From NCBI GenBank assembly GCA_942490535.1, contig CALNXQ010000001.1:124396-188395 (forward strand): 64,000 nt of DNA, given 5' to 3'. The notes under the pieces were generated by a model, which ran no database searches, was not told where the DNA came from, and saw only the letters and a list, made by a program, of their open reading frames with translations. Positions 16,473 to 27,465 of the stretch are shown piece after piece. The stretch comes from an uncultured Marinilabiliaceae bacterium (GTDB lineage Bacteria > Bacteroidota > Bacteroidia > Bacteroidales > Marinilabiliaceae). Numbering within the stretch: position 1 is the stretch's first letter; each line of letters opens with the position of its first letter. Position numbers and translations under genes: made by a program.

Positions 16473-16556
16473 TGCCCAGAACAGGACTCGAACCTGCACG
16501 TCCTTGCGAACACTGGTCCCTGAAACCAGCGCGTCTACCAATTTCGCCACCTGGGC
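16473..16556 (-). tRNA. tRNA-Leu (anticodon CAG), 84 nt, CCA not encoded
   Basis: I folded the cloverleaf manually. The acceptor is GCCCAGG/TCTGGGC, the anticodon stem-loop is CTGGT-TTCAGGG-ACCAG, and there is a long variable arm and a GGTTCGAGTCC T-arm. Confidence 0.85.
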
Positions 16557-22443: not shown

Positions 22444-22468
22444 AAAGGAGGCTTAGGCCTCCTTTTTT
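22444..22468 (+). terminator. Rho-independent terminator after rplT
   Basis: AAAGGAGGC-TTAG-GCCTCCTTT is a 9-bp stem, followed by a TTTTTT run. Confidence 0.75.
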
Positions 22469-22570
22469 GCTTTATTTAAGTCCGGGTTTTAACTTATCAC
22501 TGTTTCATACCCGATACTTGTGCTCTTTTTTTATCTTTGCTCTTATAAGATAAAATAAGTAGAAGAGCGC

Positions 22571-23287
22571 ATGAAGATAGCATTGATAGGATATGGGAAA
22601 ATGGGCAAGGAGATTGAGAAAATTGCCCTGGATCGTGGTCATGAAATTGTGACTGTTATTGATGTTTCCACCAATGGGTCCTTTGACGACGAAGCTTTTA
22701 AATCGGCCGATGTCGCCATTGAGTTCACCCGGCCTGAAGCGGCCTACGATAATTACCTCCAATGCTTCAATAAAAATATACCGGTTGTGTCCGGGACTAC
22801 CGGTTGGTTAGATCATCTAGAAGATATTAAGAAGCGGTGTGCTACGGATAAAAAGACCTTCTTTTATGCCTCCAATTTTAGTTTAGGTGTCAATATTTTC
22901 TTCGAGATTAACAAGCAGTTGGCGCGCCTTATGAATAAAGTGCAAGAGTATGAAGTAAGTATGGAAGAGGTACATCATACTCAAAAATTAGATGCGCCAA
23001 GCGGAACTGCCATTACACTGGCAGAAGGGATTATTGAAAATCTGGAGCGAAAAAATAATTGGGCCAGTGAGACGGCAGATAAAGCGGATGAAATTGCTAT
23101 TAAGGCTTTCCGTGAAGGCGATGTGCCGGGTATTCACACCGTGAAATACGATTCTTCGGTGGACGAAATTGTGATTCATCACAGTGCTAAATCGCGAAAG
23201 GGATTTGCGCTGGGTGCTGTCTTGGCCGCTGAATTTGTGAAAGGCAAGACGGGTTTTTTATCCATGAAAGATTTATTAAACTTCTAA
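22571..23287 (+). CDS. dapB: 4-hydroxy-tetrahydrodipicolinate reductase
   Basis: The N-terminus MKIALIGYGKMGKEI is a Rossmann motif. It is 238 aa and in the conserved Bacteroidota dapB-lepB arrangement. Confidence 0.85.
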   Translation: MKIALIGYGKMGKEIEKIALDRGHEIVTVIDVSTNGSFDDEAFKSADVAIEFTRPEAAYDNYLQCFNKNIPVVSGTTGWLDHLEDIKKRCATDKKTFFYASNFSLGVNIFFEINKQLARLMNKVQEYEVSMEEVHHTQKLDAPSGTAITLAEGIIENLERKNNWASETADKADEIAIKAFREGDVPGIHTVKYDSSVDEIVIHHSAKSRKGFALGAVLAAEFVKGKTGFLSMKDLLNF

Positions 23288-23299
23288 CCTTAATTAAAT

Positions 23300-24730
23300 A
23301 TGATGCAAAACATACCTATGGCTCGATGGATTAAATTTGGTATTGCCAGTTTAGTTTTCATCTTGTGGGTAATTTGGGTGGGTAACTTCTGGTTACTACT
23401 GTTATATCCTTTACTTTTTGATGCTTATATCACCAAGAAAGTACCTTGGGATTTTTGGAAAAAACAAAAAGATGGTCAAAAACCCAATAAAGTTATTGAA
23501 TGGATCGATGCATTAGTGTTTGCATTGGTTGCTGTCTATCTCATTAATATCTTCTTGTTTCAAAACTATAAGATACCAACAAGCTCTTTAGAGAAATCCT
23601 TGTTGGTGGGTGATCATTTATTTGTAAGTAAAGTCAGTTTTGGGCCACGCATGCCCAATACGCCCATTGCTTTCCCATTGGTTCAAAACACTTTTCCCGT
23701 CATCAACACCAAGTCGTATTCTAGTTGGCCCCATTGGGACTATAAAAGGCTGGCTGGTTTTGGTGATGTAAAGCGAGACGATATTGTGGTGTTTAATTTT
23801 CCTGCTGGTGATTCGGTGCCTTTTAAAGTAACCAATCCGGATATCTATAATTTATCCATGGAGGTTGGCATTGGAGAAGCAGCTCGTAATTCTAAATTAC
23901 TGCCCACTCAACCATTCAATTCAGCCTGGGAGCGTAATAATTACTTCCGTAGTATCGGTCGGAAAATAATCGATAACAATGAAGCTTCTTATGGAGAGGT
24001 GCTGTATCGGCCGGTTGATCGCCGTGATAATTATGTGAAACGTTGTGTGGCTCTGCCAGGCGATGTGTTTGAAATTCGAAGCAACCAGATTTACATCGAT
24101 GGGGAGAAAGTGAATAATCCGGAAGGTTTGCAGCATAATTATACCGTTACTACTGATGGAACAACCTTAAATGATCGTTTCTTTGATAAAATTGGTGTGG
24201 CGAAGGATGATCAAATGGGTATGTCGCCCAATTACTTTTTGCCCTTAACTGCTGCTCAGCTTGAGCAAGTAAAAGGATTTAGTTTCATTAAAAGTGTGAG
24301 AGTGCAGGAAATGAAACCCGATTCAAGTGGGTTGCAAACCTTTCCACATAGTCCGGACTATAACTGGAGCCGTGATAATTATGGGCCTTTAAAGATGCCC
24401 GCAGCTGGCGAGACGGTCGCATTAGACCTGAAGAATCTGGTTTTGTACGATCGCATCATCACAGCCTATGAAGGCAATACTTTAAAAGTTAAAGAGGGTG
24501 ATGTTTTTATCAATGGCGAAAAGGCAGATTCCTATACCTTTAAAATGAATTATTACTTTATGTTAGGTGATAATCGGCATAAATCAGCGGATTCACGTTT
24601 CTGGGGTTTTGTACCGGAAGATCATATTGTTGGAAAGCCCATTTTAGTTTGGCTTTCATTGGATAAGGATAAAAGCTTTCCAGCCAGTATTCGGTGGAAT
24701 CGGTTTTTTAAGATCGTACATAATAATTAA
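23300..24730 (+). CDS. lepB: Signal peptidase I (S26A), long Bacteroidota form, copy 1
   Basis: Box B PTSSLEKSL retains the Ser nucleophile position, box D YVKRCVALPGD retains the general-base Lys, and box E GDNRHKSADSRFWG is present. The probable start is the second ATG at 23303, by comparison with copy 2. Confidence 0.8.
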   Translation: MMQNIPMARWIKFGIASLVFILWVIWVGNFWLLLLYPLLFDAYITKKVPWDFWKKQKDGQKPNKVIEWIDALVFALVAVYLINIFLFQNYKIPTSSLEKSLLVGDHLFVSKVSFGPRMPNTPIAFPLVQNTFPVINTKSYSSWPHWDYKRLAGFGDVKRDDIVVFNFPAGDSVPFKVTNPDIYNLSMEVGIGEAARNSKLLPTQPFNSAWERNNYFRSIGRKIIDNNEASYGEVLYRPVDRRDNYVKRCVALPGDVFEIRSNQIYIDGEKVNNPEGLQHNYTVTTDGTTLNDRFFDKIGVAKDDQMGMSPNYFLPLTAAQLEQVKGFSFIKSVRVQEMKPDSSGLQTFPHSPDYNWSRDNYGPLKMPAAGETVALDLKNLVLYDRIITAYEGNTLKVKEGDVFINGEKADSYTFKMNYYFMLGDNRHKSADSRFWGFVPEDHIVGKPILVWLSLDKDKSFPASIRWNRFFKIVHNN

Positions 24731-24742
24731 ACAACATATAAA

Positions 24743-24770
24743 GAAGTTTCCCTTGGAAACTTCTTTTTTT
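24743..24770 (+). terminator. Intrinsic terminator after lepB copy 1
   Basis: GAAGTTTCC-CTT-GGAAACTTC is a 9-bp perfect stem, followed by TTTTTTT. Confidence 0.7.
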
Positions 24771-24817
24771 CTATGCAGTTGAAAGCTACAATTAATTTCG
24801 AACCCTAATTAATTATA

Positions 24818-26245
24818 ATGCAAAACATACCTATGTCGCGATGGATTAAATTTGGTATATCCAGTTTAGTATTCATTTTGTGGGTAATTTGGGTGGGTAA
24901 CTTCTGGTTTCTATTGATATATCCATTATTATTTGATGCCTATATTACCAAGAAAATACCGTGGAATTTTTGGAAGAAACGAAAGGATGGTCAAAAACCA
25001 AGTGCGGTAATTGAATGGATTGATGCTTTGGTATTCGCACTGGTTGCTGTTTATCTAATCAATATTTTCTTGTTTCAGAACTATAAGATACCCACCAGTT
25101 CACTGGAGAAGTCATTATTGGTGAATGATCACTTGTTCGTGAGTAAAGTGAGTTATGGTCCTCGTATGCCGAATACTCCCATTGCTTTTCCGTTGGTGCA
25201 GAACACATTTCCAATTACCAAGAGCAAGTCTTATTCCAGTTGGCCCCATTGGGATTACAAGCGCCTGGCTGGTTTTGGAGATGTGAAAAGGGATGATATT
25301 GTGGTGTTTAATTTCCCGACCGGTGATTCCGTACCAGTTAAGCAGACGAATCCGGATATTTATATTTTATCCATGGAAATAGGCGTTAATGAGGTCGCTC
25401 GTAATTCCCAATTGATACCCTCTCAATCATTTAATTCAGCTTGGGAGCGTAATCAGTATTTTAGAGGAATTGGCCGACGTATTATTGAAAACAATGAAGC
25501 TTCCTATGGTGAAATAGTATACCGTCCAGTGGATCGTCGTGATAATTACGTAAAACGATGTGTGGCTTTACCTGGTGATCTGTTTGAAATGCGAAGCAAT
25601 CAGATCTATATTAATGGTGAAAAGGTATCTAATCCGGAAGGATTACAGCATAACTACACCGTTATTACGGATGGAACGACCCTCAATGAACGTTTCTTTG
25701 AGAAAATTGGGATAGCAAAGGCAGATCAGATGGGTATGTCACCCAAATACTTTTTGCCGCTTACAAGTGCTCAGCTGGAACAGGTGAAAGGATGTAAGTT
25801 TGTTGAAAGTGTGACGGTTCAGGAAACGAAACCGGATTCAAGTGGTTTGCAAATCTTTCCGTACAGCCCGGATTACAACTGGAGCCGCGATAATTATGGA
25901 CCATTAAAAATACCCGTTGCGGGAGAGACTGTAGAGTTGAATACTAAGAATTTGGTGTTGTATGATCGTATTATTACAGCATATGAGGGAAATACCTTAG
26001 CTATGAAGGAGGGTGAGATTTTTATCAATGGTGAAAAGGCGAGCTCTTATACGTTTAAAATGAATTACTATTTTATGTTAGGTGATAATCGTCAAAAATC
26101 TGCTGATTCGCGCATGTGGGGTTTTGTGCCGGAAGATCATATTGTCGGAAAACCTATTTTAGTATGGCTTTCTTACGATAAAGATAAAGGATTTCCAGCC
26201 AATATTCGCTGGGACAGGTTTTTTAAGATCGTACATAAATACTAA
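24818..26245 (+). CDS. lepB: Signal peptidase I (S26A), long form, copy 2 (tandem paralog, ~85% identical to copy 1)
   Basis: It is collinear with copy 1 along its whole length, and boxes B, D and E are conserved. Confidence 0.8.
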   Translation: MQNIPMSRWIKFGISSLVFILWVIWVGNFWFLLIYPLLFDAYITKKIPWNFWKKRKDGQKPSAVIEWIDALVFALVAVYLINIFLFQNYKIPTSSLEKSLLVNDHLFVSKVSYGPRMPNTPIAFPLVQNTFPITKSKSYSSWPHWDYKRLAGFGDVKRDDIVVFNFPTGDSVPVKQTNPDIYILSMEIGVNEVARNSQLIPSQSFNSAWERNQYFRGIGRRIIENNEASYGEIVYRPVDRRDNYVKRCVALPGDLFEMRSNQIYINGEKVSNPEGLQHNYTVITDGTTLNERFFEKIGIAKADQMGMSPKYFLPLTSAQLEQVKGCKFVESVTVQETKPDSSGLQIFPYSPDYNWSRDNYGPLKIPVAGETVELNTKNLVLYDRIITAYEGNTLAMKEGEIFINGEKASSYTFKMNYYFMLGDNRQKSADSRMWGFVPEDHIVGKPILVWLSYDKDKGFPANIRWDRFFKIVHKY

Positions 26246-26258
26246 ATTAGTTATAAAT

Positions 26259-26285
26259 AAGTTTTCATTGGAAACTTCTTTTTTC
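26259..26285 (+). terminator. Degenerate copy of the lepB terminator after copy 2
   Basis: AAGTTT-TCATTGG-AAACTT is followed by a T-run. It is homologous to 24743-24770 but has a weakened stem. Confidence 0.4.
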
Positions 26286-26286
26286 T

Positions 26287-27465
26287 ATGCAGTTGAAAAA
26301 AATCATCGGTTATATATTGCTGCTAGGGTTTCTGGTTCTTTCATGTTGGAGCCGCAGCTGGATCATCTTTGGCCTGTTAATAATAGGTTGTGTATACGTT
26401 TGGCATCCTTCAGCGAATAAAGTATTGTTAAATAAATGGCGACAGCTTCCGCTTAAACAACGAAAGAGGTGGGAGTGGTTACCCCTTGTAAGTGGGGGAG
26501 TCATTTTGATTTGGTTCGTAAATAGTTTTTTATTCAGTGTGTATACCATTCATTCATCCTCCATGGTGCCTGCCTTGTCATCCGGAACGGTTTTGGTTAT
26601 GAATAAATTCAAAACTGGTTCAGCGCGTTCCATTAATTCGCCGGATAATTATTATCGTTTGGGTGGATTACGGGGTTTTGAGAGGGGGGATGTGGTTATT
26701 TTTCATTTTCCTGAAGCCGATACAGTTTTTGAAGAGCATCCCTATGAGAACTACTATTTTAAGCAGAGGCAATACAGTGTAACCAAAACCTTTAATCCCA
26801 TGCTCCGCAACAAGGTGTTGTTTCAACCGGTTTCTGAACGACCCTTGTTTATAAAGCGAATTGTTGCATTACCTGGCGATACCGTGCAGATTGTGGACGG
26901 GAATATCCGTGTGAATAGAATTGTATCGGATGTTAATTCAGATGCTGTGGAGAAGTATGTATTGAATGAGGATGCCCCTACCAAGATCAAGGAAAAGGTC
27001 ATTGGTTTGGCACAGACCCATTACAAAGAAAAGGATCATCAGATAGTGGAAATACTCCAAAGAAAAGTTGAATCAAATGGGTTTGAAGCCTTCCTGGAAA
27101 GGGATGGAGATCCGCTTAATATGCCCGATGCCTACGTATTTCCATTTTCCTCCTATTATTTTTGGAATGCTTCTTATTGGGGGCCGATAGTGGTGCCCAT
27201 GAAAGGTTCCTCTGTAAATTTATCGTTGCGTGAGTTGCCAATTTATCGTCGAATTATTGAAACCTATGAAGGGAATCAGCTTGAAGTTGATGGGGCGGTC
27301 ATAAAAATTAATGGAAGTCCTGTTACTAATTATACTTTTAAAATGAATTACTACTGGGTAGCTGGTGATAATCGGCCGCATTCCTTTGATAGCCGGTACT
27401 GGGGTTTCGTACCCGAGAATCACATGGTCGGCACGGTAAGTGCCGTATCATTTCGAAATCAATAA
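26287..27465 (+). CDS. Signal peptidase I (S26A), short divergent third paralog
   Basis: Box B SSSMVPAL, box D FIKRIVALPGD and box E GDNRPHSFDSRYWG are present, and the N-terminus is a TM anchor. Confidence 0.75.
   Translation: MQLKKIIGYILLLGFLVLSCWSRSWIIFGLLIIGCVYVWHPSANKVLLNKWRQLPLKQRKRWEWLPLVSGGVILIWFVNSFLFSVYTIHSSSMVPALSSGTVLVMNKFKTGSARSINSPDNYYRLGGLRGFERGDVVIFHFPEADTVFEEHPYENYYFKQRQYSVTKTFNPMLRNKVLFQPVSERPLFIKRIVALPGDTVQIVDGNIRVNRIVSDVNSDAVEKYVLNEDAPTKIKEKVIGLAQTHYKEKDHQIVEILQRKVESNGFEAFLERDGDPLNMPDAYVFPFSSYYFWNASYWGPIVVPMKGSSVNLSLRELPIYRRIIETYEGNQLEVDGAVIKINGSPVTNYTFKMNYYWVAGDNRPHSFDSRYWGFVPENHMVGTVSAVSFRNQ

Follow-up and report, generated by a model that had tools for sequence, protein, structure and literature searches.

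Genes for type I signal peptidase (SPase I) are already known to occur as tandem paralogues. Listeria monocytogenes has three neighboring signal peptidase genes, sipX, sipY, and sipZ, with one major enzyme (PMC4010754), and in Streptomyces lividans SipY is the major enzyme, the loss of which can be compensated by SipW, SipX, and SipZ (PMC8724576). In S. aureus, the adjacent S26 paralogues spsA and spsB arose by duplication, and SpsA is inactive, having lost both catalytic residues (PMC10849702). In E. coli and A. baumannii, arylomycins select for lepB amplified in tandem; the arrays are unstable and increase the dosage of this essential signal peptidase (PMC7817135). A paper on the Bacteroidetes Q-rule (PMC5837995) contains nothing on SPase I paralogues.

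The locus analyzed here lies in a window of 64,000 nt (the whole stretch of DNA that was studied) from an uncultured Marinilabiliaceae bacterium (assembly GCA_942490535.1, contig CALNXQ010000001.1, positions 124,396–188,395, forward strand). This source organism is a marine, Gram-negative member of the Bacteroidota near Carboxylicivirga. The gene order is dapB, lepB (copy A), an 87-nt spacer, lepB (copy B), and lepC, all on the + strand.

22571–23287, + strand: dapB, 4-hydroxy-tetrahydrodipicolinate reductase (Pfam DapB_N/DapB_C; TIGR00036 above cutoff)
23303–24730, + strand: lepB copy A, 475-aa S26 signal peptidase I (PF10502, 131.2 bits; TIGR02227, 124.5 bits)
24818–26245, + strand: lepB copy B, 475-aa S26 signal peptidase I (PF10502, 137.3 bits; TIGR02227, 134.2 bits)
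26287–27465, + strand: lepC, 392-aa second S26 signal peptidase paralogue (PF10502, 113.6 bits; TIGR02227, 95.7 bits)

Like the Listeria and Streptomyces Sip clusters, for which overlapping function is known, this locus holds several paralogous S26 signal peptidases. It differs from those Gram-positive clusters in that the host is a Gram-negative member of the Bacteroidota, the predicted enzymes are of the long (∼475 aa) Bacteroidales type, and the youngest pair is still 86% identical with a duplication junction that can be reconstructed. Unlike SpsA, both long enzymes keep the catalytic residues Ser95 and Lys246 as well as box E and are under purifying selection. The head-to-tail multiplication of lepB resembles that selected by arylomycins, but those amplifications are recent, identical, unstable, and laboratory-selected, whereas the window has a fixed two-copy state that is 20% diverged and common to two lineages. 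The window shares its locus and gene family with the ancestral Bacteroidales arrangement, dapB-lepB-lepC(-lapA-wbqC); within our sample, only the window lineage and a sister lineage have a recent extra long gene and thus three S26 genes after dapB. The pair is a clean but ordinary instance of gene-family growth. We give a probability of about 0.88 to a single ∼2.1-kb tandem duplication in a common ancestor, followed by decay of the junction, with both lepB genes kept as active enzymes.

A tandem duplication of the long lepB was the core of the original prediction, and it is borne out in the window. A repeat search found direct repeats spaced 1515 nt, with units arranged head to tail, and local alignment of 23275–24784 with 24791–26298 gave 1516 columns at 80.4% identity with 14 gap columns, all of them outside the coding sequences (CDSs) or at CDS edges. 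The CDSs (23303–24730 and 24818–26245) align codon for codon without a gap at 79.8% nucleotide and 86% amino acid identity, and their differences at codon positions 1, 2, and 3 number 53, 28, and 207. The repeat is thus real. The predicted nucleotide identity of ∼85% is actually that of the proteins (85–86%), the nucleotide value being ∼80%, and the homology upstream of the ATG extends ∼28 nt rather than ∼15 nt, taking in the last dapB codons and the stop.

23275–24784, + strand: repeat unit 1, dapB tail, lepB copy A, terminator hairpin, and lepC-start remnant (local alignment, repeat search)
24791–26298, + strand: repeat unit 2, dapB-tail remnant, lepB copy B, weaker hairpin, and true lepC start (local alignment, repeat search)

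The products of copies A and B and of lepC all exceed the curated cutoffs for type I signal peptidase (MEROPS S26A), which are 22.9 bits for PF10502 and 47 bits for TIGR02227, and a search of the 64-kb window found no other S26 gene. The lepC protein is 29% identical to copies A and B and is the product of a duplication much older than the A/B pair. Copy A has an alternative ATG at 23300, but its start is probably the second ATG (23303), which corresponds to the start in copy B and in every outgroup orthologue. A lookup of the exact sequence of copy B returned zero matches in a collection that lacks the window genome itself.

The retention of the Ser/Lys dyad and box E in both copies, as predicted, was confirmed by alignment to E. 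coli LepB structures (PDB chains 1t7d and 9nlo). Ser95 (codons at 23585–23587 in copy A and 25100–25102 in copy B), Lys246 (24038–24040 and 25553–25555), and box E (GDNRHKSADSRFWGFVPE and GDNRQKSADSRMWGFVPE) align to E. coli Ser90, Lys145, and GDNRDNSADSRYWGFVPE. In box B, the IPTSS95L of both copies aligns with E. coli IPSGS90M, and IPTSSL is present in 108 of the 120 closest homologues. In box D (KRxxGxPGD), both copies read NYVK246RCVALPGD, aligned with DYIK145RAVGLPGD of E. coli. Box E (GDNxxxSxDSRxWG) reads GDNRHKSADSRFWGF in copy A, GDNRQKSADSRMWGF in copy B, and GDNRDNSADSRYWGF in E. coli; its usual Tyr (101 of 118 homologues) is Phe in copy A and Met in copy B, a residue found in 0 of the 118. 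A further change in copy B is G103N, in box B. As candidate N-terminal membrane anchors, each protein shows two hydrophobic stretches by sequence (approximately residues 10–38 and 64–86). Both 475-codon ORFs are intact and complete in their catalytic residues, and we infer that both enzymes are active and expressed.

The candidate transcription signals of the locus are as follows.

22532–22539, + strand: TATCTTTG, a −7 promoter motif of the Bacteroidetes type; the dapB ATG follows 32 nt downstream (pattern scan)
24740–24773, + strand: intrinsic-terminator-like 12-bp hairpin AAAGAAGTTTCC/GGAAACTTCTTT and T-run, after copy A (terminator scan)
26259–26284, + strand: weaker 8-bp hairpin AAGTTTTC/GGAAACTT and T-run, directly before the lepC ATG (RNA fold)

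The Bacteroidetes −7 consensus is TAnnTTTG. The motif TATCTTTG lies downstream of the rplT terminator hairpin (22444–22465, terminator scan) and is likely the start of a dapB-lepB transcript. The hairpin after copy A has an RNA fold centroid of −15.5 kcal/mol (z = −4.3), and of the 8 single-copy outgroups shown, 6 have a hairpin and T-run at the equivalent position. The hairpin before lepC is at −4.8 to −5.8 kcal/mol (z = −0.14) and was not called by the terminator scan. No clear promoter was seen for copy B, which lies behind the strong hairpin and T-run, and a near-consensus −7 motif (TAATTTCG) occurs at 24793 inside the A-B spacer. Transcription of copy B would presumably come from read-through past the hairpin that follows copy A, or else start at a weak spacer promoter. 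A σ70 scan (19 matches versus 18.9 expected) was uninformative; it does not extend to Bacteroidota promoters. An Rfam scan of the whole window found one tRNA and no match at the lepB locus.

It had also been predicted that the two copies are maintained by selection rather than decaying, and the dN/dS check agrees. By NG86, ω between A and B is 0.058 (with dS saturated at 1.5), and among orthologues it is 0.024–0.034 for A and 0.08–0.11 for B. When the window is compared with a collinear JGI metagenome contig (L082), copy A has 2 synonymous and 2 non-synonymous differences and copy B has 17 and 4. Both copies are therefore under strong purifying selection. Polarized substitutions number 28 on the B side and 14 on the A side, and copy B is the faster evolving of the two, with amino acid changes at ∼2 times the rate of copy A. 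We asked whether one copy, most likely B, could be redundant and being lost, or non-catalytic like S. aureus SpsA, which set an earlier example of a neighboring paralogue without activity (PMC10849702). In keeping with this, 16 of the 28 changes in B fall at outgroup-invariant sites, B has the G103N and box E Met replacements, and it is placed behind a terminator-like hairpin. However, the B ORF is intact in four assemblies (two of which, containing L001 and L002, may be one lineage), its Ser/Lys dyad and box E are kept, its ω among orthologues and its 17:4 ratio within the species indicate constraint, and it has survived beyond synonymous saturation. Loss or inactivity of B is therefore very unlikely, and retention of two active enzymes is the reading we carry forward.

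To place the duplication, orthologous loci of relatives were compared for one versus two long lepB genes. Three contigs of a sister lineage (L001, L002, and L003; MAG16 JAEINY01 and two metagenome contigs, of which L001 and L002 may be one lineage) have the same duplication, including the three-gene array and the junction, whereas in ∼30 other Marinilabiliaceae loci (L004–L038, 11 of them from named Carboxylicivirga genomes) dapB is followed by a single long lepB and a shorter lepC. In trees of the six duplicated copies (Aw and Bw from the window; A1, B1, A3, and B3 from the sister lineage), these form one clade with 100% bootstrap that excludes every single-copy genome sampled. Bw, B1, and B3 group together (89%), Aw with Bw was recovered in 0%, and quartet sites favor A/B orthology across the lineages by 47:18:22. 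The monophyly of the six copies and the grouping of B copies across lineages indicate that one duplication preceded the split between the window and sister lineages, and the sampled loci place it after the divergence from the ∼30 single-copy Marinilabiliaceae and Carboxylicivirga genomes. The root within the six-copy clade is unstable, (Aw,A1,A3) being recovered only with codon positions 1+2 (75%), and the age relative to speciation rests on a modest phylogenetic signal because synonymous sites are saturated. The description of the duplication as ancient is relative: A/B synonymous sites are saturated (dS 1.5), but saturation is equal between sister orthologues (dapB dS 1.3), and the event came after divergence from the single-copy genomes.

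The spacer between the copies contains a scar built from fragments of the neighboring genes, as had been predicted.

24771–24784, + strand: lepC-start remnant CTATGCAGTTGAAA, 2-nt leader and lepC codons 1–4, identical to 26285–26298
24773–24808, + strand: chimeric 11-codon mini-ORF, MQLKATINFEP and a stop, lepC codons 1–4 in-frame with decayed dapB C-terminal codons
24785–24817, + strand: decayed dapB tail (stop mutated from TAA to GAA) and lepB leader, ∼80% identical to 23270–23302

The shared fragment at the lepC start is present, although it consists of a 2-nt leader and the first 12 nt of the gene (MQLK) and not its first 14 nt. The 11-codon remnant ORF is likewise present; it is in the frame of copy B and ends 9 nt before the B ATG. 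Among the relatives, this ORF is 19 codons long in L003 and its ATG is gone in L001, so that a role as a functional leader peptide, which we considered, is unsupported by the length, sequence, or start codon in those contigs. The mini-ORF is probably non-functional and should not be annotated as a gene.

The extent of the unit as originally predicted is contradicted by the relatives. Its ends had been placed immediately 5′ of lepB and 14 nt inside the gene that follows, but the A-B spacer of the relatives is 316 nt, versus 87 nt in the window, and holds lepC codons 1–15 and 122–145 (E = 1e-5 for residues 1–15 and 3e-9 for 122–145) and then dapB codons 181–238 (E = 1e-25 for ∼174–238). From these fragments, we conclude that the original unit was ∼2.1 kb, from approximately dapB codon 181 to approximately lepC codon 145. 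The 3′ end of dapB, whose codons recur in that spacer, and the 5′ part of lepC accordingly lay inside it, and the 87-nt spacer is the residue left by later deletion. The dapB fragments are 70–81% identical with indels, which fits long neutral decay; the notion that they are too well preserved for the dS of the gene was dropped. The boundaries of this old duplication can be reconstructed because the sister lineages keep stages of junction decay (∼2.1 kb, 316 nt, and 87 nt).

Another possibility considered was that the second lepB is a xenologue, taken up from a different Marinilabiliaceae species and integrated next to the lepB already present. The 80% identity of the copies resembles between-lineage divergence, B orthologues are closer at synonymous sites (dS 0.78–0.88) than A orthologues or dapB (1.3–1.5), and copy B has five times the within-species differences of copy A; together these points could mean that B-region DNA moved between lineages. 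Such a later homologous exchange of B between the sister lineages is possible, but it is distinct from the origin of the copy, and the acquisition itself is highly improbable, as the six copies form one clade excluding all sampled single-copy genomes (100% bootstrap) and the junction derives from resident flanking genes in the order expected of tandem duplication (lepC′ then ′dapB).

Independent duplications in the window and MAG16 lineages were a further alternative. Across sampled Bacteroidales loci, one (24 loci), two (48 loci), or three S26 genes lie downstream of dapB, and in several lineages two long S26 genes stand there as an older tandem pair; this locus has repeatedly yielded new S26 paralogues, with arrays of differing ages. 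The very different spacer lengths (87 versus 316 nt) also fit parallel events. Against this, the B copies group across lineages, Aw with Bw is never recovered, quartet sites favor orthology, and the window spacer has both kinds of remnant (lepC start and dapB tail) in the order seen in the relatives, which makes parallel events exceedingly improbable. An assembly artefact, in which two strain or species haplotypes of a single lepB locus were stitched head to tail, has a negligible probability even though the relatives derive from metagenome assemblies and two of the lineages come from consecutively numbered JGI datasets (Ga0193952 and Ga0193953), because the array occurs in four independent assemblies (ENA, two from JGI, and NCBI), the junction holds specific dapB and lepC fragments rather than a simple repeat boundary, the copies are 20% diverged with B copies of different lineages grouping together, and L082 matches window positions 22526–26443 (dapB, A, spacer, B, and the lepC start) at 99.1% identity with zero gaps and an identical spacer.

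In the single-duplication reading, a ∼2.1-kb segment was duplicated in tandem in an ancestor common to the window organism and the sister lineage. Illegitimate recombination within a short, partly homologous stretch (TTTTCnnGAAGnnGAT) would have joined its ends to give dapB, lepB (A), a lepC′::′dapB junction, lepB (B), and lepC. The truncated junction fragments would then have decayed, with an internal deletion leaving 316 nt in the sister lineage and a deletion in the window lineage, possibly at TGAAA(G) microhomology, leaving 87 nt in which lepC codons 1–4 are in-frame with the last dapB codons and followed by the lepB leader. The microhomologies at both junctions are tentative, as they are read from diverged sequence. 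Strong purifying selection has preserved both full-length lepB genes, presumably as active type I signal peptidases, and gene conversion or constraint would keep the end tracts alike (the opening 150 nt of the CDS, the terminator together with the remnant of the lepC start, and, for L003, the entire 3′ half).

The benefit of the pair may be extra or partly specialized signal-peptide processing capacity. It is doubtful, but conceivable, that A and B divide the secretome or that the duplication was fixed as a doubled LepB dosage against a natural arylomycin-like SPase I inhibitor. Copy B, with lineage-conserved changes beside its active-site boxes (G103N and the box E Met), could prefer a subset of preproteins, and dosage protection against an inhibitor in a sediment community may follow the route of laboratory arylomycin resistance. 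If either is true, the locus would be a dated instance, from nature, in which a Gram-negative bacterium turned an essential housekeeping protease with one gene copy into a two-enzyme system. For annotation, the locus has two predicted functional lepB genes and lepC, not a gene with a pseudogene and not a misassembly. Its practical value is small; it is a tidy case study that also illustrates asymmetric divergence of copies and gene-conversion tracts at repeat ends.

The signature of gene conversion between the copies is present in L003, where A3 and B3 group in the 3′ half (96% bootstrap) and a 68-nt tract that starts at the hairpin and takes in the lepC remnant is the same at both positions, L003-specific variants included. 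In the window, the two units differ over the final 35 nt of the repeat by a single indel, and a window-specific variant common to both scar positions is found at one site only (CAG versus CAT), while the A1 remnant also has TTGAAA. Gene conversion or constraint probably explains this identity better than passive preservation or slow decay, and terminator constraint or retention could account for it in place of conversion. At the other end of the repeat, third-position identity among the six copies is 80% in the first 150 nt of the CDS, versus 56–70% elsewhere and 49–50% for outgroups.

In this part of the window, the gene order is thrS, infC, rpmI, rplT, dapB, copy A, copy B, lepC, a LapA-domain gene, and wbqC, where copies A and B are adjacent long lepB genes for S26 signal peptidase I and lepC is a third, shorter S26 gene. 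The array comprises the following features:

22571-23287, dapB
23303-24730, copy A, S26 gene of 475/476 codons
24773-24808, remnant ORF in the spacer between copies A and B
24818-26245, copy B, S26 gene of 475/476 codons
26287-27465, lepC, S26 gene of 392 codons

The tandem duplication of the long lepB proposed in the original prediction was borne out by local alignment (23275-24784 pairs with 24791-26298 at 80.4% identity), by a repeat search that found direct repeats spaced by 1515 nt, and by the gap-free, codon-for-codon alignment of the two coding sequences. The nucleotide identity of these coding sequences is 79.8%, with third codon positions accounting for 207 of the 288 differences, and the encoded proteins are 86% identical; the 85% nucleotide identity originally reported is the protein figure, the actual nucleotide value being 80%. 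The observation as a whole was confirmed, and its interpretation was supported in part. The lepC protein is only 29% identical to either long copy. Repeat homology begins ∼28 nt 5' of the lepB start, taking in the final dapB codons and the dapB stop, and continues 3' of lepB across a hairpin and T-run to a final motif, CTATGCAGTTGAAA, which consists of 2 nt of leader followed by lepC codons 1-4.

An artefactual origin of the array was rejected, as a 3918-nt JGI metagenome contig (L082) is collinear with window positions 22526-26443 at 99.1% identity without gaps and has an identical 87-nt spacer, and three contigs from relatives, L001 (ENA), L002 (JGI), and L003 (NCBI MAG16, JAEINY01), each contain dapB, two 476-codon S26 genes, and lepC in the same order, with ∼91% protein identity to copy A.

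The duplicated unit was originally proposed to start just 5' of lepB and to end 14 nt inside the next gene, which is refuted by the spacers between copies A and B in L001 and L003. These are 316-324 nt long and contain three fragments detected by tblastn:

lepC residues 1-15 (E = 1e-5)
lepC residues 122-145 (E = 3e-9)
dapB residues about 174-238 (E = 1e-25)

The dapB fragment is frameshifted and matches the intact gene at 70-81% identity. The switch from lepC to dapB occurs at ...DVVLYNF/CEGDVPGIH..., where both parents share the patch TTTTCnnGAAGnnGAT. Since these spacers retain pieces of both neighbors, the duplicated unit spanned ∼2.1 kb, with its ends near dapB codon 181 and near lepC codon 145. 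The predicted junction scar is nevertheless present, as the 87-nt spacer of the window has been reduced to lepC codons 1-4, the final codons of dapB, and the lepB leader. Its lepC and dapB pieces meet at TGAAAG, and the presence of this hexamer in both parents (lepC, ...CAGTTGAAA; dapB, ...CCATGAAAG) suggests a microhomology-mediated deletion that would have fused the two remnants in frame.

To place the duplication, neighbor-joining trees were built from the six duplicated copies (A and B of the window, L001, and L003) and six single-copy outgroups. All six duplicated copies fall into a single clade (100% bootstrap), the three B copies cluster (89%, all positions), and a grouping of the window's own A and B was never recovered in these trees. 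Quartet site patterns (Aw,A1|Bw,B1, for the window and L001) favored orthology by 47:18:22. In every one of the loci L004-L038, from ∼30 Marinilabiliaceae including Carboxylicivirga sediminis, mesophila, taeanensis, marina, fragile, caseinilyticus, and linearis, a single long lepB lies between dapB and lepC. Together, the trees, the quartet patterns, and these single-copy relatives indicate one duplication, which took place in an ancestor shared by the window and MAG16 lineages, once that ancestor had diverged from the sampled single-copy Carboxylicivirga. Copies A and B have saturated synonymous sites (dS 1.54), and saturation is equal for orthologues compared across the two lineages (dapB, 1.33; A, 1.49; lepC, 2.1). 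The description of the duplication as ancient therefore needs qualifying, as the event is of great absolute age but preceded the lineage split by little. The Carboxylicivirga sp. McD6.26 MAG has two long-lepB loci on separate contigs, L012 (JAOARW010000085.1) and L017 (JAOARW010000064.1), one with the usual dapB/lepC/wbqC neighbors and the other with none of them; a dispersed additional copy and a mixed bin are both possible explanations.

The ends of the repeat have been homogenized to different extents. In L003, A3 and B3 (its copies A and B) cluster over the 3' half of lepB (96% bootstrap), and the two positions match completely along 68 nt that start at the hairpin and reach into the remnant of lepC, L003-specific variants included; the 16 nt directly 3' of the stop codon still cluster by position. 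The clustering and the shared L003-specific variants identify this as gene conversion between these copies. In the window, the repeat ends in 35 nt that differ between the copies by a single indel. Over the first 150 nt of the coding sequence, third-position identity is 80% among the six copies, compared with 56-70% over the rest of the gene and 49-50% for outgroups. All six copies are near-identical over the tail of dapB, the spacer of 12 nt, and lepB as far as nt ∼150 (23258-23450 and 24791-24965 in the window), a stretch that is not especially conserved among outgroups. The end identity in the window could reflect conversion (a hot spot) or lineage-specific constraint at the nucleotide level.

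The claim that both copies are under selection held. The NG86 omega is 0.058 between A and B, 0.024-0.034 among A orthologues, and 0.08-0.11 among B orthologues. Relative to L082, 2 of the 4 differing sites in copy A and 17 of the 21 in copy B are synonymous, the latter proportion showing that copy B is currently under purifying selection. Alignment to E. coli LepB structures mapped Ser95 (IPTSSL vs E. coli IPSGS90M), Lys246 (NYVKR vs DYIK145R), and box E to the same positions in A and B. The serine nucleophile is followed by Leu (23585-23590 and 25100-25105), not Met as in E. coli SGSM, and IPTSSL is the norm of the clade (108 of the 120 closest homologues).

Amino acid differences between A and B amount to 0.20-0.24 per site in family-specific inserts vs 0.05-0.12 in boxes B-E. 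When polarized with outgroups, 28 changes are derived in B (16 at outgroup-invariant sites) and 14 in A (6 at such sites), an approximately two-fold asymmetry (chi-square about 4.7). Among the substitutions common to all B copies are G103N (box B) and a Met in box E, at a position where 101 of 118 homologues have Tyr and none has Met. Within-species differences from L082 are five times more numerous in copy B than in copy A, and dapB has 6 in 717 nt; between lineages, dS is lower for B orthologues (0.78-0.88) than for A orthologues or dapB (1.3-1.5). This combination of higher B divergence from L082 and lower B dS between lineages may indicate that the B region recombined or introgressed between related lineages.

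A consensus is known for the Bacteroidetes −7 motif. A motif of this type, TATCTTTG, lies 5' of dapB at 22532, and a near-consensus one, TAATTTCG, is found at 24793 in the spacer before copy B. A 12-bp hairpin and T-run (centroid −15.5 kcal/mol, z = −4.3) follow copy A, and a weak hairpin follows copy B. Both in the window (26259-26289) and in 6 of 8 single-copy outgroups examined (L004, L006, L007, L013, L019, and L021), a terminator-like hairpin and T-run end 0-30 nt short of the lepC ATG, an arrangement that is conserved although its sequence is not. The mechanism that expresses lepC in these outgroups, read-through or other, would have fed copy B too once the duplication had occurred. An Rfam scan of the whole 64-kb window gave one family match only, a tRNA gene at 16473-16556 (−).

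Signal peptidase I paralogues are already known as neighbors in Listeria (sipXYZ; PMC4010754), as multiple, mutually compensating genes in Streptomyces (SipW/X/Y/Z; PMC8724576), and as the adjacent spsA/spsB pair of S. aureus, in which SpsA is inactive (PMC10849702), and arylomycin resistance can arise in the laboratory through tandem amplification of lepB (PMC7817135); the window duplication is a well-resolved further case. The dapB-linked S26 array of Bacteroidales contains one to three genes. At ten loci from other Bacteroidales (L039, L042, L054, L058, L059, L065, L066, L069, L074, and L077), dapB is followed by an older tandem pair of long S26 genes (430-470 aa), 35-43% and about 50% identical to copy A; these pairs are independent duplications at the dapB locus. 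A further contig, L061 (CAWEFA010000113.1), has dapB-lep-lep followed by inverted lep fragments and dapB, a palindrome suggestive of either an inverted duplication or an artefact of assembly.
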